Assembly (NCBI GenBank): GCA_050187415.1
Contig: JBFWXN010000014.1
Coordinates: 14,475 to 78,474 of the forward strand
Origin: Hyphomicrobiaceae bacterium
Lineage (GTDB): Bacteria > Pseudomonadota > Alphaproteobacteria > Rhizobiales > Hyphomicrobiaceae
Reading direction: 5' to 3'
DNA length: 64,000 nt
Below the pieces are notes generated by a model. That model worked only from the letters and a program-made list of their open reading frames with translations, was not told the origin of the DNA and searched no databases. Each line of letters opens with the position of its first letter. Within the stretch, counting starts at the first letter, position 1. This document shows, in pieces, positions 4,137 to 63,874 of the stretch. A program made the translations under genes and the position numbers.

Positions 4137-5102
4137 CTAATTGCGCTTTCGTTGCTCGGCAAACTGCGAGAGCACCATGTCGGGCGACGATGAGTTGTGC
4201 CGCGAGACGAACGCGCGCCCGGCCCACAAGTCAGTTGCCGTGCCGCCTTTGAACGCCATGACCGGCGTCTCGCTCCAACCGGTGGCGCCGGGCGCACGAA
4301 CGGCAACCCGCGCCACGTCGTTGTTGAACTCGGTAACATACATCGAGCGCAGAGCTGCAAATGGACCACCGGCCACTGGTCTGTCGAGCGCGACGTCGAG
4401 CACGTGCTTGTTTGTCGTGACCTCGCTCATGGTGATCTCGGCGCTGCCGCCGCGCTCGAACGAAATCGAGAAGCGCCGAGACTTGGGATCGAACGCAATT
4501 TCTTTCAGCTTCACGATAGGACGCACTTCGGTCTCGACCGGACCAACGAGAAACGACGTGCCAAAGGCTGTCGGTGCGCGCCCCTCCGGCGCGAGCGGCC
4601 GAATGCGCCAGTATCCGTCCTGCGGATAGAGGACCAGAACCTCCTCGCCCCCCATCGGCCGGATCATCCAGACTTGCACCAGATGCAGCCCCGTCTCGAC
4701 GCGATCGCCGATGCGAACGGTGGCCCTGGCCGGGCGCCAGAAGGTGGGCAACCTCCAGCCCACGACCCAGAGGGCCGGCTCCTCATACAAGGTCTGCCGG
4801 GTCGGGACCTTGACCTCGCTCGCGTGCGAGGCGTCCTTCGACATATCGCACGCCGTCCAGTCCGCCTCGAAGCTGTCGCGCGCCAGCATGCCAATGTATG
4901 ACGGATGGGCTGCCTCGATGCGGAAGCTGCGCACCTGCGATGAGGCAAAATCGAGCGTGACGTTGTCCTTTTCAGCGCAAAGCACCGGCTCCGAGCCGTT
5001 GCGCACCTCGACCGCAAACCCTTCGGCGGCCAAGGGGGCGCCGAGGCCGGCAAGTTGCAGCATCGATAGCGCAATTAGAAAATGGCACGATGATCGGCGC
5101 AT
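4137..5102 (-). CDS. hypothetical secreted protein
   Basis: ATG at 5102 gives signal peptide MRRSSCHFLIALSMLQLAGLGAPLAAEG. 321 aa with no motif I recognise. It is the only minus-strand gene inside the plus-strand catabolic block. Confidence 0.6.
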   Translation of the reverse strand: MRRSSCHFLIALSMLQLAGLGAPLAAEGFAVEVRNGSEPVLCAEKDNVTLDFASSQVRSFRIEAAHPSYIGMLARDSFEADWTACDMSKDASHASEVKVPTRQTLYEEPALWVVGWRLPTFWRPARATVRIGDRVETGLHLVQVWMIRPMGGEEVLVLYPQDGYWRIRPLAPEGRAPTAFGTSFLVGPVETEVRPIVKLKEIAFDPKSRRFSISFERGGSAEITMSEVTTNKHVLDVALDRPVAGGPFAALRSMYVTEFNNDVARVAVRAPGATGWSETPVMAFKGGTATDLWAGRAFVSRHNSSSPDMVLSQFAEQRKRN

Positions 5103-5306
5103 GGCGTCGGAAGCTCCGGGCACGAGAACGAACGGGGGCTGGGCGGCGCCGAGTTATCTCACACGTCACCCGATCGACAATATGGCGATGATCGACAGGA
5201 TGAACTCGATTGCCTGTCCGGCCGAGCCACGGATGTTGCCGGCTCACGCGGCTGGCGTATGCTTGCGACGAAATCAAATTAGAAAGCGGCCGGAGGAAAC
5301 CAACTC

Positions 5307-14383: not shown

Positions 14384-15583
14384 CTATCGCTCCGCAGCCC
14401 GAATCCGCCTCGCTCGCACGGCTTCGAATGCGTTCGTGAAGGCGATCGCGCCGGACTTCCGCAGGCCATGGTTCATCCGGTCGTCGAGCGCAGCCAGCAA
14501 TTCGGCTGATGTGCGATCCCGCACGATTGAATTGCGATTGTACGCGTTCTCGGCGAAGAAGTTGGACGTCGGCATCGTGCGGCCGACCGTATCCATCATG
14601 TCGAGCCCCGTCTGCGGCCCGGCGAGATTCATCAACTCGATCTCGGCGCCATTGAGGTGCGGGCGGCCAGCCTTTTCGGCGTATTCACGCAAACCTTGCA
14701 ACTTGACCGTCTGCAGCCAAGGACCGATGTCACCGTCGAGATTGAGAGCGTGGATACCAAGCCCTCTTGCGGTGTGGGAGAAAGCCACGTGCGCACTCCA
14801 CCGGTTGGGCACGGAGCGCGCGCCCTTGAGCATGCGCCGTACGACCGTGGCCTTGGCCAGAAGCTCGGCCCGCCGCCGCCCGCCGGCGCGCGCCGCGAGC
14901 GACCGCAGGCGCGATACGAACGTGGTCCCGTGCTTCACCAACTCGTCGACCGAGTTGGCCGCGAGAAGCTGGGCATAGCCGAGCGCCGACGAAATCGGCC
15001 GCCCCTTCTTCGTATCAGGATCGATCCCGGCCTGCATGTCGTAGGTGCCGCGCCCTCCTGTTTCGAGAGCGTAGACTCGCACGACCTGATCCTTCGTGAG
15101 GCCGAGCGAAAGCGCCTCCTCGGCATAGCGCAGCTTGAACTCGTCTTCCGAGACGCGAATTGGCACGAAGCCGTAAACCCTGCGCGCCTGCAGAAGGAAA
15201 TCGGAGAGGTCCGCCATCGTCGACGAGGGTGGTTCCGACGGCGGCGCGAGACCGGCGATGATCTTGGCCACATCCGGAGGCATGGCGGGTCCAGCATACT
15301 TCGGAGGCTTCACGGCGACGAAGTCATCGGTCGTGAAAGCTTGCTTGGCCGAGCGCTTGCGCCGCCGCTGCTGCTTCAATTCCTCGATCACGGCCCAATA
15401 GGCATCCGTCTCTTTGGCGTGTTGGGACTTGGCCCTGAGATAGAGCACATAGGCGCGCGTCTGCGCCTCGCTCAATCTGCCCGCCAGATCCTCGCCGATG
15501 CGCTGCGCGCTAGCTTCGCCGCAGAAGGCTGCAGCCATCAGCAAGAGGGCGACCCCACGGGTGATCAAGTTTGCCATGAGCAC
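14384..15583 (-). CDS. secreted protein, possibly lysozyme-like/lytic transglycosylase fold
   Basis: GTG at 15583 lies 9 nt after GGGAGG (ATG alternative at 15577). Signal peptide LITRGVALLLMAAAFCGEASA. YALETGGRG...SSALGYAQLL is weakly reminiscent of SLT catalytic Glu and GxxQ motifs. The function is tentative. Confidence 0.5.
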   Translation of the reverse strand: MLMANLITRGVALLLMAAAFCGEASAQRIGEDLAGRLSEAQTRAYVLYLRAKSQHAKETDAYWAVIEELKQQRRRKRSAKQAFTTDDFVAVKPPKYAGPAMPPDVAKIIAGLAPPSEPPSSTMADLSDFLLQARRVYGFVPIRVSEDEFKLRYAEEALSLGLTKDQVVRVYALETGGRGTYDMQAGIDPDTKKGRPISSALGYAQLLAANSVDELVKHGTTFVSRLRSLAARAGGRRRAELLAKATVVRRMLKGARSVPNRWSAHVAFSHTARGLGIHALNLDGDIGPWLQTVKLQGLREYAEKAGRPHLNGAEIELMNLAGPQTGLDMMDTVGRTMPTSNFFAENAYNRNSIVRDRTSAELLAALDDRMNHGLRKSGAIAFTNAFEAVRARRIRAAER

Positions 15584-30796: not shown

Positions 30797-32629
30797 TCAG
30801 CGAGCCCGCTGACCACGCTGGCGCGCCTGCCGCAATTCCCGATCATGAATCGTTTCACCACCCGGAATCCGCAGGTCGCGCACCATCTCCAGAATGTGCC
30901 GACCGGGCACCGGCGTCAAATAGCTCCCGATCCCCGCAGCGATCAGCGCGGCGGGCACGGCGACGACGGGTGCGAGCAGGCCGGGAAGGCCGAAAGACGA
31001 GAGATCTGCCAGCAGAACAGCGAATGCCGTGAACAGTCCCGTCGCCAGGCTTGCGATCGCTCCACCAGTGGACAGGCGCTTCCACCAGATCGAAAGCAGG
31101 ACGACGGGGAATATGGCCGAGCCCGAGATCACGATCGCATAGAGCATCAGCAGGAACGGATCGCCTTTGGCGCTGACCGCTCCCATCCCCGCCACGGCAA
31201 TCACCCCGACAAGGGCGAGGCGACATGCGAGAATGCACCTTTGATCGCTCGCCTTCCAGCGATCCGGCCCATTGGCCACGTCGTCACCGAGAATGACGCC
31301 CATCTGGGTGAGGCTGGTGGCGGCACCGATCAATGCGGCAGCCATTACGCCCGCGGCGACAAGATTGACCACCGCGAGCGGCATGCCCATCATCAGCGGC
31401 AGTGCGACAAGCGCGCCATCGCGATCGAAAAGAAGCGAATTTACGGTAATGCGCGCGGACTGTCCGTCAGCGGCAGCGAGGCCGACGTCGATCAATCTCT
31501 GAAGTGCAACAGGCGGCGCGGCCGTGGCATGACCGACGAAGCTGCTGACGAGGACGTCTCGCTCGAAGACGGCGACGCTGGAAAACGTCAGCAGAAGAAT
31601 TCCGACGATTGCCACCGCCCAGCCGACCGACTTGCGTGTGTCGTAGACACTCGGCGTCGTCACCGAGCGCGACAGGATTGCCGGCGAACCGACCACGCCG
31701 ACCAGAACAGAGAGTGTCATGAGGGCGTAGGCGAGCGGACCGACGCTGCCGAACGTCGTCGCAAAACGGCCAACGATCGGTTGCAGCCCCGCGCCCGGCA
31801 ACTCAAGCGCCATCAGTCCCGCCACCGGCACCGGCACGCTCTGCAACGCCTCGAGCCGTCCAACGGTGCGAATGATCGGACCATGGCTCAATTGGCCGAA
31901 CGGCAGGTTCGTTTCCATCGCGGCGGCGATGGCCGCAGGCAGCAGTATCGCGATCAACACTGCCAGTGCCTGCGCCGCGCCGGACCAGGACAGCGAACGC
32001 ACACCACCCGGCAGCACTGTGATTGCCACGACCAGCACGATCAGCCCGCAAGCGGCCTCCGGTGGTACCGGCAGCAGCCACATCAAGCTCATCATGCCAA
32101 TCTTGATTTCCGCGATGGCGAGCAGCATCAGAGGAACGATGCAAACCATGGCCGCGAAAAGCCTCAGTGCTCCGCTCTCGAATCGTTGCCCGAGATAAGA
32201 CGGAATTGTCGGCGCGCCGAATTTCCTGAGGTAGGGCGCGACGAGCATGACCGAAACAGTTAGGCCAGCGACGATGCCCACTCCCACGCAAAGCATATCG
32301 AAGCCCGCGAGAAACAGCGTCCCCGGGATGGCGGTAATGCCTGCGGAGCCAAGCGATATGACGGCGAGCGCGGTACCGTTGTAGACGGCCGGCACGCGCC
32401 GTCCCGAGAACAAGAACTCTCGCGCGCGACGTGTGTGGGCCCCTGCTCCAATGGCAGCGAAGAGAACGACCGAGATAACGACCATGCCCGCCTTCAGCGA
32501 CGCCTCGGTAACGCCAAGTTGCTCAAAGATCAAAAGAAGAACGACACCAGCCGCCAGGCAAGCCGCAAAGATGCCGAAGTAGACACCGAGCAATGGGTTG
32601 GAAATCGATGTCCCATGCGGGGGTGTCAT
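30797..32629 (-). CDS. sodium:solute symporter family protein (large subunit of DUF4212-associated type)
   Basis: 610 aa with about 13-14 TM helices. The ATG lies 3 nt after the stop of the DUF4212 gene (TAGCCAATG). Confidence 0.8.
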   Translation of the reverse strand: MTPPHGTSISNPLLGVYFGIFAACLAAGVVLLLIFEQLGVTEASLKAGMVVISVVLFAAIGAGAHTRRAREFLFSGRRVPAVYNGTALAVISLGSAGITAIPGTLFLAGFDMLCVGVGIVAGLTVSVMLVAPYLRKFGAPTIPSYLGQRFESGALRLFAAMVCIVPLMLLAIAEIKIGMMSLMWLLPVPPEAACGLIVLVVAITVLPGGVRSLSWSGAAQALAVLIAILLPAAIAAAMETNLPFGQLSHGPIIRTVGRLEALQSVPVPVAGLMALELPGAGLQPIVGRFATTFGSVGPLAYALMTLSVLVGVVGSPAILSRSVTTPSVYDTRKSVGWAVAIVGILLLTFSSVAVFERDVLVSSFVGHATAAPPVALQRLIDVGLAAADGQSARITVNSLLFDRDGALVALPLMMGMPLAVVNLVAAGVMAAALIGAATSLTQMGVILGDDVANGPDRWKASDQRCILACRLALVGVIAVAGMGAVSAKGDPFLLMLYAIVISGSAIFPVVLLSIWWKRLSTGGAIASLATGLFTAFAVLLADLSSFGLPGLLAPVVAVPAALIAAGIGSYLTPVPGRHILEMVRDLRIPGGETIHDRELRQARQRGQRAR

Positions 32630-32632
32630 TGG

Positions 32633-32893
32633 CTAGAGGTCCTCGTGCGCACCATGCCAGTGATCGATCGCATCCTGTCGATTGATGTAGGCGAACGTCG
32701 TAATGACCGCGATCAGCACCAGCCCGTGGCATGCTAAAAAGTAGCCCAACGGGAATCCGAGTATCCGTCGTGAGTTGAGCTGGTCGGCATAAAGCGGCAG
32801 CACCAGCAGCGCCGCCAGGAACGGCAGCAAACTCGTCAACATTTGCCACTTGGTGTGGCGCCAATAGGGCTTGCGCTCCTTGCGCTCGATCAT
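32633..32893 (-). CDS. DUF4212 domain protein (putative solute:sodium symporter small subunit)
   Basis: 86 aa. YWRHTKWQMLTSLLPFLAALLVLPLYADQLN...ILGFPLGYFLACHGLVLIAVITTFAY fits the family pattern. It is translationally coupled to the symporter. Confidence 0.8.
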   Translation of the reverse strand: MIERKERKPYWRHTKWQMLTSLLPFLAALLVLPLYADQLNSRRILGFPLGYFLACHGLVLIAVITTFAYINRQDAIDHWHGAHEDL

Positions 32894-33270
32894 GCATCAC
32901 CCCCTGGGCCGCTCCGCAATCCGGCCACTCTGCAAACTCCCACCCGCGCACCCGCGTAAAGCTCTATCCGCTCGGCCATTGCCGCACCAGAACGTCTTGG
33001 CCATCATCCCCCACCCATTGTCGTCACGCTCGCCTTCGAATATCGGGCCCGAAGTCCGCGTCCGTTGCAGCCATATGCCAATTCTATCCACGTACGAGAG
33101 TAATGTCAGGGTGCAGAGCTGATTGCTCGGCAGATGCTCCCGGATTAATGTCCGTCGCCTCGGCGTCGCCAAACGTCCCGTCACAAAGCGTTTTCGTATG
33201 TCGGCAAACGTCCGAGCAGGACGACCACGTGCGGCCGGCGCAGGCATTCACACAGCCAGAAGGGGCGGAC

Positions 33271-33764: not shown

Positions 33765-34748
33765 CTATGAGCAGCTGCCGCCGCCGAGCACACAGAACTT
33801 CGCACAGTGCGGATGGCAGAGCTTGACTGCGCCCTTGTCGAACATTCCTGAATCGGCCGCTCCTGCCTCCGCGAACGTGCCCCCCATCTCGAACGCGCGC
33901 TCGTACGGAAGGAGCGTGCAGGGAAGAATGACGGGTGCGGCCGCGCCCTTGCGCTTCACGACCATGCGGCTCTTGGCGCACATCATATCGGCGGGCGACT
34001 TGTGGAGGATGCCCCAGCATGCCGTGGTGATCTCGGGCACGTCGTAGCTGCCGTCCATCTCCGGCAAAAGCATGAGCTGCTTTGGATTGGCGGGATCGAT
34101 GCGCCAGCCGCGCATCGCAATGAGAGCTGCATATCCGTTGCGCTCCTCGCCCTCCCCTTCGTCCCAGCACGTGCGCCCTGCGATGGCGATCTCGAATCCG
34201 TTGGCATTGAGCCAATCAAGCCCGGCAATGGCTTTGCCCCACGTCTTGACGCCGCGTTCCGCCTCGTGCAGCTCCGGGGTGAAATGGTCGAGGCTGACCC
34301 TGATGCGCAGTCGTGCCCCATGTTTCTCCCGGAGCGCGATCAACCCCCGCTTGATCGGGGCCCGCTGCATCGGCTGCATGGCATTGGTCAGCACGAGCAC
34401 ATCGAAGCCTCGCTCGAGGGTCACTGCGAGAATGTCTAGAAATTCAGGATTCATGAAGGGCTCACCACCGGTGAACCCGATCTCGCTGGTGCCGTAGTCG
34501 TCGCGCAGTAGCTCGTCGAGGAGCGCCGTCACTTCCGCCGCAGAGAGGTAGACGAGCCGATCGTTCTTCGGGCTCGAGTCGATGTAACAGTTGGCGCACG
34601 TGATGTTACAGAGCGTGCCGGTGTTGAACCACACCGTCTCAAGTCGTTCCAAACCCACGCTCGCGCGACGCTCTCCCTTGGCCGTGAGGTCGGGGTTCTC
34701 GAATTTGGCGACATTGGGCACTCCCAATGCTTGCGCTGGCTCGTTCAC
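33765..34748 (-). CDS. radical SAM protein with Cys-rich C-terminal domain (ArsS/DUF3641-like?)
   Basis: CNITCANCY is CX3CX2C. FTGGEPF glycine-rich SAM motif. C-terminal Cys cluster ...CWGIL..MCAKS..LPCTL..LCHPHCAKFCVLGGGSCS. The preferred start is GTG 34748, 6 nt after GAGGGAAAG; the alternative is GTG 34799. Confidence 0.8.
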   Translation of the reverse strand: MNEPAQALGVPNVAKFENPDLTAKGERRASVGLERLETVWFNTGTLCNITCANCYIDSSPKNDRLVYLSAAEVTALLDELLRDDYGTSEIGFTGGEPFMNPEFLDILAVTLERGFDVLVLTNAMQPMQRAPIKRGLIALREKHGARLRIRVSLDHFTPELHEAERGVKTWGKAIAGLDWLNANGFEIAIAGRTCWDEGEGEERNGYAALIAMRGWRIDPANPKQLMLLPEMDGSYDVPEITTACWGILHKSPADMMCAKSRMVVKRKGAAAPVILPCTLLPYERAFEMGGTFAEAGAADSGMFDKGAVKLCHPHCAKFCVLGGGSCS

Positions 34749-34860
34749 TATGCGCTTTCCCTCGTTGTGCCGAATGACAGGCGCTCCCCAACGCCTCACT
34801 ACTCATTTCCGGCAGCCCGACCTACCATGCTCATGCTCGGCTGCGGTACTCACGATGACT

Positions 34861-37155
34861 TTATTGCGCGGTGAGCCGGACATCGGACGTGACATCCGGA
34901 CGCTCCTGCGGCACTTCCCTCAAGCTCTTCACGACGCGAAGCCGGCCGCGACATGACCGCGCCTCGTCACGGCGGTGAACGCGCCCGACGATCGAGACCG
35001 ACAATCCGGCACTCGCAAGTGCAGCGACCGCCGCTTCGGCCTTGTCTGAAGGAAGGCCGGCGAGCAGACCGCCTGAGGTCTGCGGGTCGAAAAGCAGCGC
35101 CAGAGCGGCGGCCGTATCCTCGACGTCGACCGTGATCTGCGCGGCAACCGCCAGATTGTCGGGCAGCAGGCTCGATCGCACGCCGGCTGAAATCAATCGG
35201 TCGACGCCCGGATAGCGATGACACTGAGCAAGCCCGATCGTGGCCGACAGGTCCGACGCTTCAAGCATTTCCAAGAGATGCCCCGCGAGACCAAACCCCG
35301 TCACATCTGTTACGGCGATCGCCGCATGCCGCCGGAGTATCCTGGCGGCGAGTGCGCTCACCGCCCGCATACCGCCAAGCGCCGCCGAGACCTCGCTCGC
35401 CTTGGCGAGGCCTCGCATCCACCCGGCAAATACGATGCCCGTGCCGAGCGGCTTGGTCAGAATGAGCACCTCGTCGCCTCCGAGACCGCCCTTGAGCCAC
35501 ACCTCGTCGCGGCCGACGCCTCCCGATGCGAAGAACCCGATGGCGAGTTGATCGGCTCTCGCCGTATGACCGCCGACGATGCCAATGCCTTCCGGCGCGA
35601 GAACAGCGCGCGCCCCGGCCAGCAGCTGAAAAAGATCATCCTCCGCAAGATGCGCCGCTGCGGGCGGCAGTCCCGCTAGCGCGAGCACATGGTCGGGCTT
35701 TCCTCCTTTCGCGAGCACGTCGCCGACCGCGTGTGCAGCCGCAATCTCGCCCAACACGTAGGGCTCCGGCCAGATCGCCGGGAAATGGTCGATCGTTTCC
35801 AGGCGCAACTGGTCCCCACCGAGATCGAGCAGGGCCGCGTCGTCATGCGGCGCGAGATTTCGCACCGCCTCGGGCGGCTGCATCGTCTCGCTCTCGGCAA
35901 ACCTATGCAGCGCTCGCGCGAGGGAGGCCGGACCAAGCTTGGCGGCACAGCCTGCGCACAGCATCTCGTCCACGCTCTGGCCGTTTGGCATCGGCTGCGG
36001 CAGGACCTGGAACATGCGCATGAAGCGACGGTCGATCCAATCCTTGAGCCGCCATGCCCAGGCGCCACTTGCCGCGAAGGGTCCGCGAGCGGCAATGGCT
36101 CGCTTGTCGCCACAGGCCATAAGCGTCAGGAACTGCGTCTGCGGCCTGAAGGGTCGGGGCGCCATGCCCTTGGCTCGCAGTCGAATGTTGCGAACGAGCG
36201 GTGGCCCCTGTCGCACCGCGAACACGCCTGCTTTCTCCCGCGGATACTCGAGCACTCCGGCGCAGTCGCCGACTGCGAAAATGTCAGCTTCGCCCTTGAC
36301 CTGAAGCGTCGGCTCGACCGCCAGGAAGCCCTGCGAGTCGAGCGCAAGGCCCGTCCCGGCGAACCAGCCAGGTGCTGCAGCCTTCGTTGTCACGAGCGTT
36401 GCGTCGCTCTCCACCGTCCGTCCGCTGGCCAAGCGAACGGATTGCCGCCCGATCTCGACCACCGCGTCCATCTCGACCAGTGTTACGCCGGCCCCCGCGA
36501 GTTCCTTTTCGGCCAGACGTCGCGCCCGCTCATTGTGGCCCGGGAGCAGGAGGCCGCTGCCGATAAGCGCGAATTTGAAGGCATCGGGCGCGATGCCGTG
36601 GTGCGGCGCCTCGTGGCGCAGCCGGTGTCGTATGGCTAGGACCAGTTCGAATCCGGCCGCTCCAGTGCCAACCAGCACAATGCGCCTCGGCCCATGCGGG
36701 GTCAGGGCGCGCGCCTCGAGATCGTTCCACCGGGGCGCAAACTCGGAAACCGGCTTCACCGCGATCGCATGCTCGACGGCGCCCACGATGTCGTCGATCG
36801 CGGGCGTGATACCGGTATCGATGGAAAGCAGATCGTAGGCTATCGACGGGCGCCCAGCGATCTGCACGCGTCGCATCGCCCGATCGATGCCGATGGCTTC
36901 TCCATGAATGACGCGCGCGCCCGCGAATTGAGCCAGACGAATCAGATCGATATGGCAGGCGTCGAGGTCGTAGTGGCCGGCCACGTATCCGGGCAGCATT
37001 CCCGAATAAGGAGCGTCGAGCTCCTTCGCCAACAGGGTAATGTCGAGGCCGGGTTCACGCTCCATGGCGAGCGCCCGCAGAACCGTCACATGCGCGTGTC
37101 CGCCTCCGATCAGCACCAATCGCCGGCTGGCGCTCACGGTCTCATTGAGATGCAT
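34861..37155 (-). CDS. selD: bifunctional FAD/NAD(P)-dependent oxidoreductase (NDH-2-like) / selenide, water dikinase
   Basis: N-terminus RRLVLIGGGHAHV plus a second dinucleotide fold VLVGTGAAGFE. The C-terminal half aligns by eye to E. coli SelD: LCAGCAAKLGP (Cys17 and Lys20 equivalents kept), DDAALL, KPLGTG, TDVTGFGLAGHL, DPQTSGGLL. ATG at 37155. Confidence 0.85.
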   Translation of the reverse strand: MHLNETVSASRRLVLIGGGHAHVTVLRALAMEREPGLDITLLAKELDAPYSGMLPGYVAGHYDLDACHIDLIRLAQFAGARVIHGEAIGIDRAMRRVQIAGRPSIAYDLLSIDTGITPAIDDIVGAVEHAIAVKPVSEFAPRWNDLEARALTPHGPRRIVLVGTGAAGFELVLAIRHRLRHEAPHHGIAPDAFKFALIGSGLLLPGHNERARRLAEKELAGAGVTLVEMDAVVEIGRQSVRLASGRTVESDATLVTTKAAAPGWFAGTGLALDSQGFLAVEPTLQVKGEADIFAVGDCAGVLEYPREKAGVFAVRQGPPLVRNIRLRAKGMAPRPFRPQTQFLTLMACGDKRAIAARGPFAASGAWAWRLKDWIDRRFMRMFQVLPQPMPNGQSVDEMLCAGCAAKLGPASLARALHRFAESETMQPPEAVRNLAPHDDAALLDLGGDQLRLETIDHFPAIWPEPYVLGEIAAAHAVGDVLAKGGKPDHVLALAGLPPAAAHLAEDDLFQLLAGARAVLAPEGIGIVGGHTARADQLAIGFFASGGVGRDEVWLKGGLGGDEVLILTKPLGTGIVFAGWMRGLAKASEVSAALGGMRAVSALAARILRRHAAIAVTDVTGFGLAGHLLEMLEASDLSATIGLAQCHRYPGVDRLISAGVRSSLLPDNLAVAAQITVDVEDTAAALALLFDPQTSGGLLAGLPSDKAEAAVAALASAGLSVSIVGRVHRRDEARSCRGRLRVVKSLREVPQERPDVTSDVRLTAQ

Positions 37156-37377
37156 GCTGGCGAAAACCTCCGGAGCGGCAGCGCTATCGATCGGGCGCGA
37201 CACGCACCGGCGGAGACCGGACAAGGGTCTTCGCGGCAAGAACCAAAGTCTCTGGCACATCCGACGACACGACGAGCAACGAACTACGTCAACCGCCGCG
37301 GCGACACCAGTGCCAAGTGGCCGGCAAAAGGGGGAACGCGGATATGCCGACCGCAAGGCCGCATAGACCGGTGTGCC

Positions 37378-37857
37378 TCATTTGAGCGTGGGATAGGACT
37401 CGACAAGCTGTGCCAAGGCAGTCGTGACACTCGCCATATCCGCCCCGCTGAACGACGCACGAAGGCGCTCCTCGGCCCGCTTGGCTGCCGGCTCGGCCTC
37501 ACCCAGCAGCGCCTCGCCCGCCTCGGTCAGCCGCACCGCATAGGCCCTCGCGTCGAGGCGCGTGCGCTTGCGCTTGATGAGGTCGCGCCGGAGGAGACGC
37601 TTGACGATCTCGGCAACGGTCGATCGATCGATCCCGGTCGCTTGAACGAGTCCGGTCTGGCTCACATCACGGGTGTTTGCCACCGCCACCAGCACCGCGA
37701 ATTGCCGGGTCGTGAGCCCCGTCTTTGCGGCCTCTTCATTGAACACGCTATCGGCAACCTGACAGGCGCGATGGAGCAGGTGCGTCAGCGAAGCGGCCAG
37801 CGCACCTTTGGGCCGTTCGTCGGACGACTCACTGCGCTCGGTCTGGTTTATGAGCAT
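37378..37857 (-). CDS. MarR family transcriptional regulator
   Basis: GGGAGG lies 5 nt upstream of the ATG. LTTRQFAVLVAVAN...VSQTGLVQATGIDRSTVAEIVKRLLRRDLIKR is a winged HTH. Confidence 0.85.
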   Translation of the reverse strand: MLINQTERSESSDERPKGALAASLTHLLHRACQVADSVFNEEAAKTGLTTRQFAVLVAVANTRDVSQTGLVQATGIDRSTVAEIVKRLLRRDLIKRKRTRLDARAYAVRLTEAGEALLGEAEPAAKRAEERLRASFSGADMASVTTALAQLVESYPTLK

Positions 37858-38052
37858 GGGGCCTCCCTCAAACAAGGCAGTCGGCAATGCACGTTACGGT
37901 CACCGACGGGACTACGCGCGAACCGCAGACGTCGAAGTGAGCATTGCCTGCGCGTCGCTGCGACACTTGGCAGGCGACTGCAAGTCAGACATCCTCATGT
38001 TTGGTAACGTGCACGTGAACGGCCGCCAGTTCCATTCGCAATTTGTGTACAA

Positions 38053-42753: not shown

Positions 42754-42897
42754 CGCTTGCACCTCACGGGACTTGCAGACTGCGCCCGTCTTGAGTGATT
42801 CAATGCCGAGAACAGTAGCAAAGCTGCGCCGTTCCTGGCCATGAGCATCGCCGCCGCGGTCAGGCCGCGCAACGGCGGCATACCAACCGCACCGTGT

Positions 42898-43881
42898 CTA
42901 CAGGATAGGCGTTTCGCCGTTAAGAACGCGCGCCAATACCGGTCTATCCACATTTCCCCCCGAAAGTATGACGCCGAGCCGCGCTCCGCGTTTCCTCCGG
43001 CCGTCTTTCAGCAACGCAGCCATGGCCGCCGCTCCGGCTCCTTCTGCCACGTTGTGCGTCGTCTCGTATATGAGGCGAATAGCATCTGCAATCTCATCCT
43101 CGGAGACGCGCACGATATCTGCAGCCCCTCTGCGCATAACGGTGAGCGCATCCGAATTCGGGTCCCGGCAGGCCATGCCGTCCGCAAACGTTTTCGCGCT
43201 ATTGGTCGACACCGGCCGCCCTGCCTCGAACGACATCGCAACGGCCGGCGCAGCCTCCGCCACGACTCCGACGATCTCGGTCGCAATCTGCAAGGCATCG
43301 CGCGCCGCAATGAGACCCGAGATCCCCGACCCCATGCCGATCGGAACATAGACTGCATCGAGCGGCCCGGCGGCCGCGAAAAGCTCGAGCGCGTAGGATG
43401 CGACACCCTTCACCAGCGCCGGATGAAAGGATGGCACCATGTGCAGCCCTTCCGCCGCCGCCAAACGCGCCGCTTCGTCCTTGGCCTCGTCGAAATCGAC
43501 GCCGTGCTCGATGAGGCGCGCACCGAACGCCCGCATCGCGGCGTTCTTCTCAAGCGAATTGCCATGTGGCACCAGAATCGTAGACGCAAGGCCTACGGCC
43601 GCCGCCGCTCGCGCGATCGACTGCCCATGGTTGCCCCGCGTTGCCGTGATCACGCCGTTGACCGGAACGCCGCTGCGCCGAAGCTCGTCCATATAGACGA
43701 TGCCGCCGCGTACCTTGAAGGCGCCGATCGGCGTGTGGTTCTCATGCTTGACCCAGATTTCGGCGCCGGCCCGCTGCGCGATCAGCGGCCAGACGTAGGC
43801 CGGAGTTGCCGGCATGTGCTCGTGCACGAGCAAAGCCGCAGCCTCCAGTTCTGAACGGTCGAAAGAATAGGCATCCGTCAT
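42898..43881 (-). CDS. threonine/serine dehydratase family PLP enzyme
   Basis: KHENHTPIGAFKVRGG (PLP-Lys), ATRGNHGQS, GMGSGISG. 327 aa, single domain with no ACT domain. Confidence 0.8.
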   Translation of the reverse strand: MTDAYSFDRSELEAAALLVHEHMPATPAYVWPLIAQRAGAEIWVKHENHTPIGAFKVRGGIVYMDELRRSGVPVNGVITATRGNHGQSIARAAAAVGLASTILVPHGNSLEKNAAMRAFGARLIEHGVDFDEAKDEAARLAAAEGLHMVPSFHPALVKGVASYALELFAAAGPLDAVYVPIGMGSGISGLIAARDALQIATEIVGVVAEAAPAVAMSFEAGRPVSTNSAKTFADGMACRDPNSDALTVMRRGAADIVRVSEDEIADAIRLIYETTHNVAEGAGAAAMAALLKDGRRKRGARLGVILSGGNVDRPVLARVLNGETPIL

Positions 43882-49497: not shown

Positions 49498-49624
49498 GCG
49501 TCGCGCCTTCCGACTAGAACGTCACGGTCCGGGGCCGAATCGCCGTTTTGGACAAATCGGTAAATTCTAGCGCAATGTGCCGCTTTCGAGGCACCCCATA
49601 TCGCGAACCTGGAGGGCCGGAATC

Positions 49625-50281
49625 ATGGACTTCTTCGTCGACACCGCCGACGTGACCGAAATCCGCGAACTCGCCGCTCTCGGCCTTCTCGATGGCGTGA
49701 CCACGAACCCCTCGCTGATCGCAAAGGCCGGCCGGGACTTCAAGACCATCATTGCCGAGATCTGCGAAATCGTCTCGGGTCCCGTCTCGGCCGAGGTCGC
49801 GGCGCTCGACACCGAAGGCATGCTCGCCGAGGGCCGGACGCTGGCAAAAATCGCCAAGAATGTCGCCGTCAAGGTGCCGCTCACCTGGGACGGCCTCAAA
49901 GCCTGCCGCACCCTGACGAGCGAAGGCACGATGGTCAACGTGACGCTCTGCTTCTCGGGCAACCAGGCATTGCTGGCCGCCAAGGCCGGCGCCACGTTCG
50001 TATCGCCGTTCATTGGCCGGCTCGACGACATCGGCCTCGACGGCATGGATCTCATCCGCGAAATCCGCACCATCTACGACAACTACACAGCGATCGAGAC
50101 CAAGATCCTGGCTGCCTCGATCCGCTCTGTGAACCACGTCCGGGACGCAGCCCTTGTCGGCGCCGACGTCGCCACTGTACCGCCAGCCACGCTGAAAGCG
50201 CTCGCCGCGCACCCCCTCACCGACAAAGGCCTCGAAGCCTTCCTCGCCGACTGGAAGAAGACCGGACAGAAGATCATCTGA
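49625..50281 (+). CDS. fsa: fructose-6-phosphate aldolase / short (type 3B) transaldolase
   Basis: [54 protein letters not shown]. 218 aa. Confidence 0.9.
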
Positions 50282-50361
50282 GGGCGCACGCGTCTCGCGC
50301 AGCTCGGCAGGCGCCCCGCAAGCCATGTGGCACATCGAACGCCGCACGCCGGACGCCGCGA

Positions 50362-50580
50362 TCATCCGAGAGCCGATCGGACCTCGGCATCGTCGGGAAA
50401 TCGTCCCGTTTGCGCCTTCGAAAACACCAGACGGCCGTCAACGCGAATTTCAAAGACGCCGCCGCCGGATCGTCGCAGCGTCACGTCCGCGTTGGGATGG
50501 GATTTGACAATGACACTCTGCACCGCACGGGCGCGCTTGTCATAGCCTCACGCACCGCAGTATTCGATCTCGACTTTCAT
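50362..50580 (-). CDS. SelW-like (Rdx family) selenoprotein with in-frame UGA = Sec at codon 11
   Basis: ATG 50580 follows AAGGGAGAAGGG. Reading through TGA (50550..50548) gives MKVEIEYCGAUGYDKRARAVQSVIVKSHPNADVTLRRSGGGVFEIRVDGRLVFSKAQTGRFPDDAEVRSALG, ending at TGA 50364..50362. Compare human SelW VVYCGAUGYKSKY...GFFEVMVAGKLIHSKK. It is absent from the ORF track because of the internal TGA. Confidence 0.8.
50510..50543 (-). promoter_or_regulatory. candidate bacterial SECIS hairpin downstream of the Sec-UGA
   Basis: On the mRNA the outer stem AUGACA (50543..50538) pairs with UGUCAU (50515..50510). A GC-rich inner stem (GCGC/GUGC region) closes a small G/U-containing apical loop about 20-25 nt after the UGA. 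Confidence 0.45.
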
Positions 50581-50605
50581 CGGCCACCCTTCTCCCTTAC
50601 CGCAC

Positions 50606-50632
50606 GGTGGCAGTCGAAATTCGGCTGCCACC
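50606..50632 (-). other. perfect 8-bp hairpin between the hydroxyacid dehydrogenase stop and the SelW-like start
   Basis: GGTGGCAG (50606..50613), an 11-nt loop, then CTGCCACC (50625..50632). No U-tract follows on the minus-strand transcript, so it is not a canonical terminator. Confidence 0.4.
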
Positions 50633-50682
50633 GCCCATATGGGCATAGTTGACCGTCCCGCAAGGATCAGTTGGGCCGCTAC

Positions 50683-51687
50683 TCAGCCAAATACGATCGA
50701 ATTGACCGCATTTTCCTTGCGCGGCACCCCGTCGAACACCGAGAGCACGTTTTTGGCCGCTTCGACCGCCATGCGCTGCATCGATTCCGCAGTAACCCCG
50801 GCTATGTGCGGCGCCATGACGATGTTCGGCAGCTTGAAAAGCGGATTTTCCGTATCCGGCGGCTCGCGGTCGAACACATCGAGTGCGGCGGCCGGCAGTG
50901 TCCCGTCCGTGAGAGCTGCATGCAAAGCCAATTCGTCGATGATGCCGCCGCGCGCGGTCGAAACGAGATAGGCCGTCCGCTTCATTTTCTTCATTCGATC
51001 GGCATTGAACATGCCGATGGTCTCTGGCGTCTTCGGGCAGTGAATTGTGATGAAATCGGCCCTCGGCAGCGCCGCATCGAGATCGGAGACCGGCTCACAA
51101 CCGGCAGCCGCAATCGTCTCGGATTTCACGTACGGGTCGTAGACGAGGACGTGCATCTCCATGGCAAGACAGCGCTTCGCCGTCCGGGTGCCGATCCGTC
51201 CGAAGCCGATGATCAGCACAGTCTTTTCGAACATGTCGGTGGCGACGTTCTCGGGCTTCAGGCGGTCCGCCCAACGCCCTTCCGCAACCAGTTTCGTCAG
51301 TTGCGGACCCTTCCGGGCGAGCGTCAGCATGAACGTCATCGCCTGCTCGGCCACCGATGGAGAATTGGCGGTCCCAGCGATCATGACGGGAACCTTGTGC
51401 GCCGTCATGCGAGGAATATCGATGGCGTCATAACCGACGCCCGTCCGTGCGACGACTTCGATGCCGTTCGAGGCCGCCAACTCGGCCTCGCCAAACGGGG
51501 TCCCGCCGAGGACAACCGCATGTACCGGTGCGTGCGACTTGAGCAGATCCTGATACTCCGCCCCTTTCATGAAGTAATTGAAGGCGATCGCCTCCACATC
51601 GTCGCGCCCGCGCAGGATTTCGATCCCGTCCGATCCCATGGAGTCAGTGTACAGCACCTTCTTCTTATTGGTCGTCATGCGCCTCAT
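50683..51687 (-). CDS. D-isomer-specific 2-hydroxyacid dehydrogenase family protein
   Basis: NAD fold IIGFGRIGTRTAKR, catalytic region STARGGIIDE...APHIAGVT. A second ATG lies at 51678. Confidence 0.85.
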   Translation of the reverse strand: MRRMTTNKKKVLYTDSMGSDGIEILRGRDDVEAIAFNYFMKGAEYQDLLKSHAPVHAVVLGGTPFGEAELAASNGIEVVARTGVGYDAIDIPRMTAHKVPVMIAGTANSPSVAEQAMTFMLTLARKGPQLTKLVAEGRWADRLKPENVATDMFEKTVLIIGFGRIGTRTAKRCLAMEMHVLVYDPYVKSETIAAAGCEPVSDLDAALPRADFITIHCPKTPETIGMFNADRMKKMKRTAYLVSTARGGIIDELALHAALTDGTLPAAALDVFDREPPDTENPLFKLPNIVMAPHIAGVTAESMQRMAVEAAKNVLSVFDGVPRKENAVNSIVFG

Positions 51688-58031: not shown

Positions 58032-59456
58032 TCAAAACGTCCCCCCGGTTTCGAAATCGCGCCCTGAGCGGCTTGGCTGTCCGCCCCCGCCGCCCCAGCT
58101 CCCACCCATTGAGCCACCAGGGAAACCATCGAACGGCGGTAGGCCGGATTGCCGTCGCCAGGGATCGCCGGGCCGCTGCCGCCAGTGTTGCTGCCGCTGC
58201 ATACGAATCCAATATTCGGCCGCCGTAATGGCGCCGCGCAGCAGCATTTGAAGCAGATCATCGACGCCGGGACTGTCTTCGAACTCGGAACCGACGTCGT
58301 CATACCTCTGCCGGCGGAAGTTCGAGGCGAGCCGCTGCAGCTCCATCTTGCGTTCCGAGAGTTGGTCGAGCCGACGTCTGCGGCTCGCGTTGGCAGCTTC
58401 GAGCGCCTCGAGCGCGCTCGCCAAACCGCGAACCTCTTCGACGACCTGATCGTCCTCTCGAGTTTCGGTTGCGGCTGCATCGCCCATCAGGCGGCGTAGC
58501 GGCTCACGTTCGAGAAATGCGGCATAGGCGGCCACCGCCGCAATGAAGGATTGATCCTCGCCCTTGGCATAGGTCTTCAATTGATGGCCGGTCTCAGTCA
58601 ATTCGGAGGTAACCTTCTCGAGTTGTCCAGCAAGCTCGGTCTGCCGTTCGCGCTCGCTCTTCAGCTCCGCAATCAGATCCGCCCCCGCCAGCTCCCGGGT
58701 CCGCGCTGCCTCGACCTCGTCGAGCCTCAACTTGGCTTCCCCAGCTTGTCGCCTGACATCCTCGGCATGCGCACGCAGCCTGACGGGGATCTCCGTCAGC
58801 AAAGCATAGTTGGCACGTGCACCCGGGTACTGGACGAGCCTCGCCACCCACTCGTCGAGCACACGGGTGAGCCCCGTCGCCTGATACGCCGGCGTGCCCA
58901 TTTTTCGCTGCCAGAGGTACATGAAAAGCGGGTCGCTACGGTAAGGTAGTCCCTTCTCGTGCTCGTCCCGCGTGACCTGCTCGGCCTTTTCGATCGCTTT
59001 GTCGAGCGTGGCGGCGAGGGCGTCGTGCGCCTCCGAAAGTTCGCGATATTCCGAATCTTGCTGCAGCACCGTGCGTGCCTCGGTCCCAAAGCGATCGAGC
59101 TGCGCCTCGAGTTCCGCAATCCGGCGCGACAGCCCATCCTGCCGTGCGACGTGCGCGGCTCTTTCGGCTTCGGCCTTCTCCTGCCGATCGGCGAGAGCCG
59201 CAACCGTCCTCAGGCGCGCTTCGAGGATGCCGCGTACCTGATGCGTGAGATTGTCGGCTTCGTCGATGACACTGTCCGACATCGCATCGCGCGCGCGAAT
59301 GGCCGCAAGCCGCCGCAGCGCCTCCAGCCGGTTGGCGATGATGCCGACCCGCTCGTTGTTGGTCGTCTCCAACTCGCGCGCCAGCGTCGCCTCCTGGCCC
59401 TTGAGCTCGCGCAGCGCCTCCTCGATCCCCGCCAGCGTGTCACGACCGCTTTGCAT
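58032..59456 (-). CDS. hypothetical long coiled-coil protein with Gly/Trp-rich C-terminal tail
   Basis: 474 aa. ATG 59456 lies 2 nt after the upstream stop (TAGGGATG). Heptad-rich segments flank a conserved-looking core (DPLFMYLWQRKMGTPAYQATGLTRVLDEWVARL). The tail is GGSMGGSWGGGGGQPSRSG. Confidence 0.6.
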   Translation of the reverse strand: MQSGRDTLAGIEEALRELKGQEATLARELETTNNERVGIIANRLEALRRLAAIRARDAMSDSVIDEADNLTHQVRGILEARLRTVAALADRQEKAEAERAAHVARQDGLSRRIAELEAQLDRFGTEARTVLQQDSEYRELSEAHDALAATLDKAIEKAEQVTRDEHEKGLPYRSDPLFMYLWQRKMGTPAYQATGLTRVLDEWVARLVQYPGARANYALLTEIPVRLRAHAEDVRRQAGEAKLRLDEVEAARTRELAGADLIAELKSERERQTELAGQLEKVTSELTETGHQLKTYAKGEDQSFIAAVAAYAAFLEREPLRRLMGDAAATETREDDQVVEEVRGLASALEALEAANASRRRRLDQLSERKMELQRLASNFRRQRYDDVGSEFEDSPGVDDLLQMLLRGAITAAEYWIRMQRQQHWRQRPGDPWRRQSGLPPFDGFPGGSMGGSWGGGGGQPSRSGRDFETGGTF

Positions 59457-59458
59457 CC

Positions 59459-60397
59459 CTACCACCTCGTCAGCGCGCCGCCGGACACCTCGCGCCGCCA
59501 CGTCGGCTCGAGGTCGCCACGCGCTTTCGCGCCGATGACCGCGCCCTGAATTATTCCATCGTCGAGCTTGTCGGCCTGCACCGCATCGAACACCGACTTC
59601 GGAACGCGCAGCGCCCATTTCTTCACGGTCTCGCGTTCGCCCGTCTCCTCGTTGAGGATCGACTGCGCAACCGCACTGCCGGAGGCGTCGATCCCTTCGA
59701 CCACCAGGTAGTAATTGCGGCTCAGCGGATTCACCCGCGGCACCCTCCATAGCCCGGTGATCTCGCCCTGACGATTGACGATCCGTATCTCATAGGCAGA
59801 ACGGATTTTCGCGAGCATCACCTTCAAGCGTTCTTCGGCCGCGCGAGCCGCCGTCGCGTCTCCACCGCCCGCCGCCGAGCGCGCGCTTTCCGCCAACTGG
59901 CGAGCCTCGTCCAGAGCGGCAGGGGACTTTGCCTCGCGTTCGATCTGGCTCGTCAGACCACTGACGCGCGCCGGCAGGTCGTGGCCCAGTTCTCGCTCGA
60001 CGGCAGCCCTTTCGAGCGCCTTTGGTCGTTCATAGGCAAGATACCAGCCTCCGCTTCCGGCAACCGCCGCCACCGCCACGATGCCAGCTCGTTTTCCCCA
60101 TCGCTCGCGTGCCACATAAAGGCGCGCGAGACGGACCTCGAACGAAGATGGCGGCGGCGTATAGACGAAGCGCTTTTCCTCGAGCGCCTTGACACCTTCC
60201 TCGAGGATGCTGTCGGGCACGTCGATGCCCTGGCCCTTGTAGATCTCGCGCAGACGCTCGATCAGTTCGGCGCGGCGATACGAATCGTCGAGTTCGCGCT
60301 CAACCAGACGCTTGTCGTGGCGCAACGTATCGACGACGTCCATGGCAATCATGACGTCGTCGAGCGGCCTCGAGGATTTCGCGTCGGCATTGGCCAT
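59459..60397 (-). CDS. hypothetical single-pass membrane protein
   Basis: 312 aa with a cytoplasmic helical N-terminus, TM helix AGIVAVAAVAGSGGWYLAY and a C-terminal beta-rich domain (YEIRIVNRQGEITGLWRVPRVNP...YYLVVEGIDASG). Confidence 0.6.
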   Translation of the reverse strand: MANADAKSSRPLDDVMIAMDVVDTLRHDKRLVERELDDSYRRAELIERLREIYKGQGIDVPDSILEEGVKALEEKRFVYTPPPSSFEVRLARLYVARERWGKRAGIVAVAAVAGSGGWYLAYERPKALERAAVERELGHDLPARVSGLTSQIEREAKSPAALDEARQLAESARSAAGGGDATAARAAEERLKVMLAKIRSAYEIRIVNRQGEITGLWRVPRVNPLSRNYYLVVEGIDASGSAVAQSILNEETGERETVKKWALRVPKSVFDAVQADKLDDGIIQGAVIGAKARGDLEPTWRREVSGGALTRW

Positions 60398-60534: not shown

Positions 60535-61695
60535 TCAGTTGAGCGTCGCTGCGTCGACGGAGAGCTGCGCGAGACGCCGCTTTCCGTCCTCGACGGCCTC
60601 GTTGATCTCCTCCGAGTTGCGGCTCGCCATGACGCGCATTTCCTTGATGATCTGCCGCGAGCGCTCCTGAAACGACACGACCGAGTCGACAAGCTTCTTG
60701 ACCGCATCGGCGCGGACTGTCGGCCCATAGCCCGCCTTGACCGCCGCCTCCTGCACCTTGTTGCCGATCTCGCCGATCGTCTCGAGACTATCGGACACGC
60801 CCTTCTTCATGGCCTCGAGCGTCTCCGTCGACTCGTGCAACCCGAACAGCCCCGTGAACGACGCCTTGAGCGCCGTCAGGACCGCCTCGTTCGTCGAAAA
60901 AAAAGTGATCGCCTGCTGATAAACGCGCTCCTTGGCGTTTGTCGTTTGCAGCAGCCGCGTCATGATCACTTCGGTTGTATTATAGCCGATCGTCAGGTTG
61001 TCGGCGAGGTCTTTGGTAATCTGATACCGTTTGTCTTCGTCCTGCATGATCCGCAACTTCTCGTCGCGCGCCAACTCCAGCTTCGCCCGCTCCGACGGAT
61101 CGCTGCCGGCAAATCCGGAAACGGCATCCGATGCGGCCGCCAGCGCTGTTTTGGTAGCATCGAGCCTGGCCTCCGCCGTCTTCAGCACTTCGAGCGCGAG
61201 GATCTGCCCTTGCTTATAGGCGCCGCGATAATCCTGGTAGGCAGCCAGAATGCGCTGCTCCCGCTTGATCTGGTCGGCACTGTCTGCCGCGACGGAGAGG
61301 TAGGATTTCTGGATCTTGTCGAAACGCTGCGAGACATCCCCGCGGGACACCTTCATCCACACGTTGTTCACGCGTTCGAACGTCGAGATACGGCCGTCAT
61401 CGAGTTGATCCACCAGCGTTTTCGCGTCATCCCGGATCGAGTTGAAACTCTCGACGATATCGTTGTAGCGCTCCCCCACCTTCATTGCCGAGATCTCATT
61501 GCGCACGATTTCGTTGAAGGTTGATGCCTCGGCCAACGTGCGCGCGATGATCGTCACCTTGTCCTTGTCGAGGTCGACGATTTGCTCGAGCAGCGCCACG
61601 ATCGGATCCTGGCCCGAGCTTTCCACCTTGAGACCCAGGTCGCGCACCTGGGAAATGGCCCTGTCGAGATACTGAAGCGCGGGAAGCGTGGCCAT
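60535..61695 (-). CDS. TelA-like (toxic anion resistance family?) all-helical protein
   Basis: 386 aa, GGAGATG before the ATG, no TM. Length and helical block order resemble TelA/YceH as I recall them, but residue identity by eye is low. Confidence 0.5.
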   Translation of the reverse strand: MATLPALQYLDRAISQVRDLGLKVESSGQDPIVALLEQIVDLDKDKVTIIARTLAEASTFNEIVRNEISAMKVGERYNDIVESFNSIRDDAKTLVDQLDDGRISTFERVNNVWMKVSRGDVSQRFDKIQKSYLSVAADSADQIKREQRILAAYQDYRGAYKQGQILALEVLKTAEARLDATKTALAAASDAVSGFAGSDPSERAKLELARDEKLRIMQDEDKRYQITKDLADNLTIGYNTTEVIMTRLLQTTNAKERVYQQAITFFSTNEAVLTALKASFTGLFGLHESTETLEAMKKGVSDSLETIGEIGNKVQEAAVKAGYGPTVRADAVKKLVDSVVSFQERSRQIIKEMRVMASRNSEEINEAVEDGKRRLAQLSVDAATLN

Positions 61696-62742: not shown

Positions 62743-63874
62743 CTAATCGATGTCCTCGACCTCGGCCGGGCCACCGCCTTTGATACGATGCGCCAGCGCG
62801 GCCTCGATGAAGGGATCGAGATCGCCATCGAGCGCACCGGCTGTGTCGCTGGTTTGCACGCCTGTCCGCAAATCCTTCACCATCTGATACGGCTGCAAGA
62901 CATACGAGCGGATCTGATGGCCCCAACCGATGTCGGACTTCGCCGCCTGCTCTGCCAGCGCCTTCGCCTCCCGTTTCTTCAACTCCATCTCGTAGAGGCG
63001 CGCCTTCAACCGCTTCATTGCAATATCGCGGTTCTGGTGCTGCGAGCGCTGCTCTTGGGCGAAGATGATGATGTTGGTCGGCTTGTGGACGAGCCGAACG
63101 GCGGATTCGGTACGGTTCACGGACTGTCCGCCCGCGCCCTGCGAACGCGTATATGAAATGTCGAGGTCCGCAGGATTGATCTCGATTTCGATAGTATCAT
63201 CGATGACCGGATAAACCGTGACGCTCGAAAAGGACGTGTGTCGGCGTGCATTGGAATCGTAGGGCGAAATCCGCACCAGGCGATGCACGCCCGCCTCCGT
63301 CTTCAGCCACCCGTACGCGTTCTCGCCCTTGACCTCGATCGTCGCACTCTTGATGCCGGCCTCCTCGCCGTCGCTCCGATCGTGGAGGACGACCTTGAAC
63401 CCGCGCCGTTCCGCCCAGCGCGTGTACATGCGCAGGAGCATCTCCGCCCAGTCCTGGCTCTCTGTGCCGCCAGCGCCGGCGTGCACCTCGAGGTAGGCAT
63501 CCATGCCATCGGCCTCTCCCGACAGCAGCGCCTCGACTTCCTGCCGCTGAACTTCCTTCACCAAGCGTTTCAGACCCGCCTCGGCCTCGCCCAGCGTCGC
63601 TTGGTCAGCCTCGGCCTCGGCGAGTTCGAGCAGCGTCAGATTGTCGTCAAGCTCCCGCTCGAGCTGCTTGAAGCTTGCGACGGCGCGCTCCAGCGATTGG
63701 CGCTGACGCATGACCTTTTGGGCTCGCTGCGGATTGGACCACAGGTTGGGGTCTTCGCTGTCGCGGTTCAGTGACGCGAGGCGATCTTCGGCAGTCTCCC
63801 AGTCAAAGAGACCTCCGCAGAAGGGCCAGCGACTCCTGAATGTCGCTGACGAGCTTCTCATGCTCGGCGCGCAT
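62743..63874 (-). CDS. prfB: peptide chain release factor 2 (two reading frames joined by +1 programmed frameshift)
   Basis: Frame 0 is ATG 63874 [23 protein letters not shown] then TGA. The +1 frame continues DWETAEDRL...SPYDS...GAGGQ... to 62743. Confidence 0.9.
63802..63814 (-). other. RF2 +1 frameshift site with upstream SD-like element
   Basis: The minus strand reads CGGAGG TCT CTT TGA C. CTT TGA C is the conserved slippery/stop context and GGAGG lies 3 nt upstream of CTT, as in E. coli prfB. Confidence 0.85.

Follow-up and report, generated by a model that had tools for sequence, protein, structure and literature searches.

The 64,000-nucleotide stretch of DNA analysed here (the window, 64% GC, to which all positions refer), from a Hyphomicrobiaceae bacterium, carries on its minus strand a gene for a SelW-like protein of the Rdx family, in which an in-frame UGA is predicted to encode selenocysteine (Sec). 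The frame extends over 72 codons from ATG 50580 to a terminal TGA at 50364-50362 and gives the product MKVEIEYCGA-U-GYDKRARAVQSVIVKSHPNADVTLRRSGGGVFEIRVDGRLVFSKAQTGRFPDDAEVRSALG, with a single in-frame TGA that lies inside a C-G-A-U motif. Reading of the strand confirmed the original prediction, made from the letters of the DNA alone, that a 72-codon minus-strand frame begins at ATG 50580 and passes through the TGA at 50550..50548, and also that no open reading frame (ORF) of at least 60 amino acids had been listed in this frame: the ORF list holds it as two pieces only, 50548-50646 (32 aa) and 50362-50523 (53 aa). The ATG is preceded by a Shine-Dalgarno-like stretch (Table 1), and a motif of this type (GGAG, GAGG, AGGA or GGGA at -16 to -4) is found in 67 of 78 orthologous loci.

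Orthologues were sought in one genome per GTDB species, which gave 293 relatives; comparisons were made on the 80 best loci. These loci belong to the Hyphomicrobiales, Xanthobacteraceae, Acetobacteraceae and Rhodopila within the Alphaproteobacteria, and include that of the cultured Rhodopila globiformis DSM 161. All 80 have TGA at codon 11, inside C-x-x-TGA, as does the window (81/81), and neither TGC nor TGT occurs at this codon among the best 80 of the 293 loci; the spacer of the motif in this alphaproteobacterial clade is G-[A/M/Q/L]. Nucleotide conservation is 0.39-0.44 before the ATG, 0.86 over codons 1-10, 1.0 at the TGA, 0.89 over codons 12-22 (which include the hairpin described below), 0.70-0.84 from there to the end of codon 72, and 0.43 beyond it, and it is lowest at third codon positions, both overall and in the ten codons that precede the TGA. 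The profile and its third-position periodicity together indicate that translation follows one frame, starting at the ATG and reading across the UGA as far as the stop codon. A lack of conservation past the TGA in relatives, which the original prediction had named as grounds for abandoning it, was looked for, and conservation instead continues to the stop codon. The terminal stop is itself TGA in 62 of the 81 family members, the window gene among them, so that one codon would have two meanings within the same mRNA.

Sequencing error was considered as the source of the window TGA and rejected, because all 81 sequences have it. A further sequence on a single 3.7-kb metagenomic contig (L081, JGI 3300037849) reads CGA (Arg) at 3031-3033, where the others have the Sec TGA, in a gene that is otherwise intact; this reflects a sequencing error or, alternatively, an uncommon inactivating variant. 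No neighbour gene is shared across the 80 loci, and the synteny of the window is matched only by a Hyphomicrobiaceae metagenome-assembled genome (L001, JAWKWD01); the neighbours at the other loci being unrelated, gene context permits no functional inference. The SelW-like proteins of the window (50362-50580) and L001 (3001-3219) are approximately 68% identical, compared to approximately 89% for the flanking genes. The SelW-like gene evolves faster than its neighbours, except for its first 25 codons, which contain the active site and the hairpin and are nearly identical between the two at the DNA level.

For comparisons with hidden Markov models (HMMs), the U of the window protein was written as C. 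The protein matches Pfam Rdx (PF10262, 73.5 bits versus a cutoff of 22.6, E = 1.6e-20) over residues 2-69, across the TGA, and NCBIfam TIGR02174 (CXXU_selWTH, 66.4 bits versus a cutoff of 34.2), which bears out the earlier assignment of the frame to the Rdx/SelW-like family with a CxxU motif, for which an Rdx HMM check had been proposed. Its score against the narrower equivalog NF041051 (SelTWH_Campy, 78.2 bits) is below the cutoff of 88, placing it outside that subfamily. All the invariant residues of the family are intact. Among solved structures, the top sequence match is human MIEN1/C17orf37 (2LJK, E = 1.3e-11), followed by Atu0228 (2FA8), SAV_2001 (3DEX), 2P0G and 2OKA, and in each of these the UGA codon aligns with the second Cys of CxxC. 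A match to the Rdx HMM that spans the TGA, combined with TGA at every one of the 80 loci, is far beyond what chance would produce.

Structure was modelled on a full-length homologue (P0002, 60% identical) and not on the window protein itself. The AlphaFold model of this homologue (pLDDT 93.4) contains the elements E-H-E-E-E-H-H, with beta1 at residues 2-8, alpha1 at residues 13-27, three more strands and C-terminal helices, in agreement with the beta-alpha-beta-beta-beta-alpha order of a thioredoxin-like fold, and its CxxU is located at the beta1-alpha1 junction, the usual position of the redox motif in such folds. All of its top 23 PDB matches are SelW-related, Rdx, MIEN1 or SelW structures, the best being the SelW-related 2FA8 (template modelling (TM) score 0.90, root-mean-square deviation (rmsd) 1.2 Å). 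The solved CxxC Rdx proteins of bacteria (Atu0228, 2FA8; P. fluorescens, 2OBK; P. aeruginosa, 2OKA; V. cholerae, 2P0G; SAV_2001, 3DEX) have the same fold as the model (TM 0.86-0.90, rmsd 1.2-1.5 Å) and also carry the redox motif at the beta1-alpha1 junction, but differ in possessing Cys rather than Sec, in their size (approximately 80-105 aa, with extra termini) and in sequence (26-35% identity). Human MIEN1 (Rdx12) is of the same family and differs by its CxxC and by a C-terminal prenylation extension. The likeness to mammalian SelW emphasized in the original prediction holds insofar as the mouse protein (2NPB) belongs to the Rdx family and has the C-x-x-U motif in common with the window protein, as well as the GxFE...G.L.FSK block, but not as orthology: mouse SelW ranks 23rd against the model (TM 0.67), and the nearest relatives are MIEN1 by sequence and bacterial Rdx proteins by fold. 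The window protein is SelW-like and not an orthologue of SelW; as judged from sequence comparisons, it is a member of the Rdx/SelW-like family, with a predicted thioredoxin fold and a C-G-A-U motif.

Bacterial SelW-like selenoproteins with CxxU were described in 2005 by Zhang, Gladyshev and colleagues (PMC1088965, PMC1794560, PMC2398784). No known prokaryotic selenoprotein family is more abundant: Global Ocean Sampling (GOS) data contain 427 Sec forms versus 56 Cys forms (PMC2398784), and Sec-using organisms have few or no Cys homologues (PMC1794560); the presence of TGA in all sequences of the present clade agrees with this predominance of Sec. The window gene has in common with this family (PF10262, formerly PF05169; TIGR02174) a size of approximately 70-80 aa, an N-terminal CxxU, a predicted bacterial selenocysteine insertion sequence (bSECIS) right after the UGA, and an excess of Sec over Cys forms. 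There is no difference in kind: the window clade derives from soil and peat Alphaproteobacteria, whereas the original surveys were of marine and anaerobe genomes, and most of its hairpin lies in the codons for a conserved E-P-R-A-R-A-A-R. Both the family and its mechanism are well characterised, and the gene is an unremarkable addition to that family, with every defining feature that could be tested; it changes nothing in existing knowledge of selenoproteins, and its value is for annotation.

The predicted bSECIS hairpin begins three bases past the UGA, with 18 nt between the UGA and a 5-nt apical loop, CGUGC. Its lower stems are GGC/GUC and AUGACA/UGUCAU, its upper stem is CGCGCC/GGUGC(A)G, and its minimum free energy (MFE) is -18.6 kcal/mol, compared to -11.7 +/- 2.1 kcal/mol for recodings that leave the protein identical (z = -3.2, with none of 200 as stable). 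The position of the hairpin and the features of its loop fit the published description of bSECIS elements (PMC1088965). The bSECIS of E. coli fdhF, the target of SelB, is likewise a hairpin directly after the UGA in the coding sequence, with a small apical loop containing G and U; the sequences of the two hairpins are unrelated, and the window gene, in a window where no selB was found, would be recoded in like manner. In eukaryotic SelW genes, by contrast, the SECIS is in the 3'-untranslated region and not inside the coding region, and an Rfam search of the window gave no SECIS match. With two alternative registers of the upper stem, 87-89% of cells across the family can pair, versus 24-60% in slid controls, a figure that is attributable to sequence identity.

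Synonymous codon choice within the hairpin is more informative than the fold. Codon entropy at hairpin codons 15-21 is 0-0.88 bits, versus 0.6-2.2 bits at other conserved fourfold- and sixfold-degenerate codons (Mann-Whitney p = 6.8e-5), and the loop U is provided by an Arg codon that reads CGT in 65 of 69 sequences, although CGT accounts for 9.9% of the Arg codons of flanking genes and is used just 1-6 times at four conserved Arg columns outside the hairpin. Conservation of the peptide is insufficient to account for this freeze, which points to a cause at the RNA level. The presence of a hairpin is weak evidence, and the real support comes from the freeze at synonymous sites and from a register that does not vary. 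Relative to L001, its closest relative, the window has replaced E-P with D-K and L with V in the hairpin segment, yet has gained the 6-bp lower stem AUGACA/UGUCAU, which fits with a long hairpin being maintained.

UGA is otherwise a normal stop codon in this genome, and the code is not reassigned, as indicated by the prfB gene for release factor 2 (RF2) and by the ordinary use of TGA, which is the commonest stop (21 of 34 annotated window genes) and also ends the SelW-like gene itself. A code in which TGA specifies Trp is thereby excluded. The open frame of prfB continues upstream to 63960.

Of the selenium machinery, only a SelD protein was seen in the window; it is fused to an N-terminal pyridine-nucleotide-disulfide oxidoreductase domain (Ndh-SelD) and encoded approximately 13 kb from the SelW-like gene. 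It comprises Pyr_redox_2 (residues 79-371) and AIRS/AIRS_C (residues 505-797), scores above the cutoffs of TIGR00476 (selD, 245 versus 125) and TIGR03169 (Nterm_to_SelD, 444 versus 310) and below that of the look-alike TIGR04369 ('fusion_not_SelD', 436 versus 700), and has the active site C-A-G-C-A-A-K, in which the catalytic Cys and Lys and a CxxC motif are present. The selD fusion that the original prediction had placed at 34.9-37.2 kb is therefore real, and belongs to a known class of Ndh-SelD fusions that always contain CxxC (PMC2398784). The listed ORF has a TTG start 78 residues ahead of the oxidoreductase domain, and its first 67 residues resemble non-coding read-in; the true start is probably Met68, near 37155.

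A genuine Sec-encoding SelW-like gene, to which a probability of about 0.9 can be given, is the favoured reading of the frame, its family, the universal TGA, the conserved hairpin and the signs of constraint on it as RNA, the presence of SelD, and the use of UGA as a stop alongside RF2. By analogy with the established bacterial pathway, the UGA at codon 11 would be recoded to selenocysteine in translation, with the hairpin, whose apical loop is CGUGC, bound by SelB-GTP-Sec-tRNA(Sec) and Sec delivered in competition with RF2; the terminal UGA, which has no such element in register, would bring about normal termination. Selenophosphate for Sec-tRNA synthesis would be supplied by the Ndh-SelD fusion. 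The product may cycle between the selenol/thiol and selenenylsulfide states as a small thiol-dependent oxidoreductase, as is presumed from knowledge of the family.

Several observations weigh against a Sec-encoding gene. Genes for selA, selB and tRNA-Sec need not be linked to a selenoprotein gene, and none was found in the 64-kb window (ARAGORN, 0 tRNAs; Rfam, 0; annotated ORFs, none) or turned up in the 3-kb flanks of the 80 loci, which contain no tRNA at all. SelD alone is no proof of Sec decoding, since it also serves selenouridine and other uses of selenium (PMC2432076). The original prediction had taken the gene to show that the organism decodes selenocysteine; of this, a strong inference stands, drawn from the selenoprotein gene itself, and falls short of a demonstration, selA, selB and tRNA-Sec not having been found in the window. 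The SelW-like gene and Ndh-SelD together predict a Sec-decoding trait in the organism and its relatives. As for the hairpin, covariation is not significant in either of the two registers or with RNAalifold, whose consensus retains only 3 pairs; there is one compensatory pair, and shuffles match the score in 108-180 of 500 cases. Family-wide, the native MFE does not surpass that of synonymous recodings (mean z = -0.41), since the only codons available for the conserved peptide E-P-R-A-R-A-A-R are GC-rich and self-complementary. Generic (lenient) bSECIS criteria pass 53% of random in-frame sites as well as 72% of real sites, and a strict filter that passes 22% of real and 1% of random sites is arbitrary, the window hairpin failing it on a technicality of stem count. 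Folds after ordinary TGA stops are similarly stable (mean -15.2 kcal/mol), for which reason fold energy alone was rejected as evidence. The window hairpin, finally, departs from the family consensus (D-K for E-P, one bulged A and one G-U pair). Generic bSECIS criteria are thus nearly non-specific in GC-rich genomes, whereas synonymous-site conservation does discriminate.

The flat family-wide z-scores, the absence of significant covariation and the non-specificity of generic criteria in the DNA of the window would all be expected if the hairpin were a by-product of the conserved alpha1 peptide and not a functional SECIS, in which case Sec insertion, if any, would depend on another signal. This is unlikely, given the frozen codons 15-21 with a disfavoured CGT exactly at the loop U, the 6-bp lower stem that still forms in the window after its peptide has changed (D-K for E-P, V for L), with the native RNA more stable than 200 of 200 recodings, and the agreement of position and loop with published bSECIS elements. 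A different possibility is that the TGA is a true stop and that all the locus contains is a decaying pseudogene or a shortened Rdx remnant (the 53-aa ORF that begins at GTG 50523), the 10 upstream codons being untranslated with it. Standard gene callers yield exactly this 53-aa fragment, SelD is accompanied by no other Sec-specific machinery in the window, and the divergence of the window hairpin from the family consensus would find a ready explanation. Such a remnant is nevertheless highly improbable: the 10 codons before the TGA are conserved with coding periodicity, unlike the sequence upstream of the ATG; TGA persists at all 80 loci over several alphaproteobacterial families, where a pseudogene would gather other lesions; the 53-aa fragment would be without beta1 and the CxxU/CxxC motif, both of which define the fold; and the window protein keeps every invariant residue of the family.

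Least credible, although by only a small margin below the remnant, is readthrough of the UGA as Trp or Cys, whether by a reassigned code or by near-cognate or suppressor decoding. Two database proteins (P0001 and P0013) do show W at the Sec position, and the evidence for the hairpin includes no significant covariation. However, when P0001 was compared with the DNA of its locus (L065), the terminal TGA proved to have been rendered as W too, which indicates that W in these entries is an artefact of a gene caller using a table in which TGA is Trp. RF2 is encoded and TGA ends most of the annotated genes; the codon aligns with the catalytic Cys of CxxC, where Trp would be non-functional; if Cys were intended, some TGC or TGT would be expected among 80 loci; and the synonymous freeze 3' of the UGA points to a cause at the RNA level.

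The expectation that gene callers would miss or truncate the gene is borne out by database homologues, 12 of 18 of which are fragments of 48-60 aa that start after the UGA. JGI labels the truncated orthologues 'selT/selW/selH-like putative selenoprotein'. Public protein collections hold the orthologues mostly in truncated (48-60 aa) or mistranslated (W) form, and the window gene should be annotated as a selenoprotein of 72 codons, with codon 11 entered as a translation exception, in place of a 53-aa fragment.

Table 1. Features of the SelW-like locus and of UGA decoding in the window.
Feature	Position	Strand	Evidence
SelW-like (Rdx family) selenoprotein gene, predicted; 72 codons plus stop, Sec at codon 11	50362..50580	minus	frame, HMM, conservation profile
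Predicted Sec codon, in-frame UGA, codon 11, motif C8-G-A-U11	50548..50550	minus	TGA conservation, Cys alignment
Predicted bSECIS hairpin, apical loop CGUGC at 50529-50525	50506..50547	minus	folding, family pairing, synonymous constraint
Purine-rich Shine-Dalgarno-like stretch AAGGGAGAAGGG, 6 nt 5' of the SelW-like ATG	50587..50598	minus	sequence reading
Truncated 53-aa ORF, GTG start, expected from a standard gene caller instead of the whole gene	50362..50523	minus	ORF list
Intergenic hairpin GGTGGCAG-(11 nt)-CTGCCACC, 3' of the 2-hydroxyacid dehydrogenase gene and 5' of the SelW-like ribosome-binding site	50606..50632	minus	sequence, leader folding
Ndh-SelD fusion (SelD with N-terminal pyridine-nucleotide-disulfide oxidoreductase domain)	34861..37356	minus	Pfam, NCBIfam, motif
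prfB (RF2)	62743-63861	minus	496 bits versus cutoff of 370

A broader proposal, conceivable but doubtful, is that the alphaproteobacterial clade is an obligately Sec-containing SelW-like subfamily (TGA in 81 of 81 sequences, no Cys among the best 80 loci), in which the start of alpha1, E-P-R-A-R-A-A-R, would have been shaped mainly by the encoding of the SECIS, and that, separately, the MarR/Ndh-SelD/radical-SAM cluster at 33.8-37.9 kb could mark a use of selenium other than Sec. By sequence, human MIEN1 is nearer to this clade than the solved bacterial Rdx proteins are. If an RNA element does dictate protein sequence here, the D-K variant of the window, with its rebuilt lower stem, would be a natural experiment in SECIS remodelling.

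The cluster consists, on the minus strand, of a MarR-type regulator gene (37381-37893), the Ndh-SelD gene and, after a 62-nt gap, a gene for an unclassified radical S-adenosylmethionine (SAM) protein (33765-34799), and these genes may form an operon. The best NCBIfam matches of the radical-SAM protein are far under their cutoffs (Rv1681 family, 88 versus 380; arsenosugar ArsS radical SAM (seleno)protein, 59 versus 300); its position beside selD could reflect a use of selenium other than Sec.

The SelW-like gene follows a same-strand 2-hydroxyacid dehydrogenase gene at a distance of 102 nt and is convergent with a transaldolase gene, with priA further on; a spurious 283-aa antisense ORF (49514-50365) overlaps it by its last 4 bases only. 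A scan of 50250-50800 for promoters and terminators gave zero predictions, and hence no canonical terminator. The intergenic hairpin upstream is a perfect, GC-rich inverted repeat of 8 bp, and the 105-nt leader as a whole folds with z = -3.6, its MFE structure pairing the Shine-Dalgarno region. This hairpin is probably either a terminator without a U-tract or an mRNA-stabilising element; alternatively, it could be a regulatory leader, and its assignment to the SelW-like gene is uncertain. L001 has at the same position (about 2965-2990) a GC hairpin, GCGGGCGG...CCGCCCGC, of unrelated sequence.

Elsewhere in the window, the ORFs at 4137-5123, 14384-15583, 42841-43854, 58032-59750 and 60535-61695 have coding-like GC content at third codon positions (GC3) and no Pfam or NCBIfam match at the thresholds used. 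A class-I lysyl-tRNA synthetase (PF01921, 55705-57372, minus strand) and a DUF4212 small protein followed by a sodium:solute symporter (30797-32896, minus strand) are also encoded, and these look like ordinary alphaproteobacterial features.

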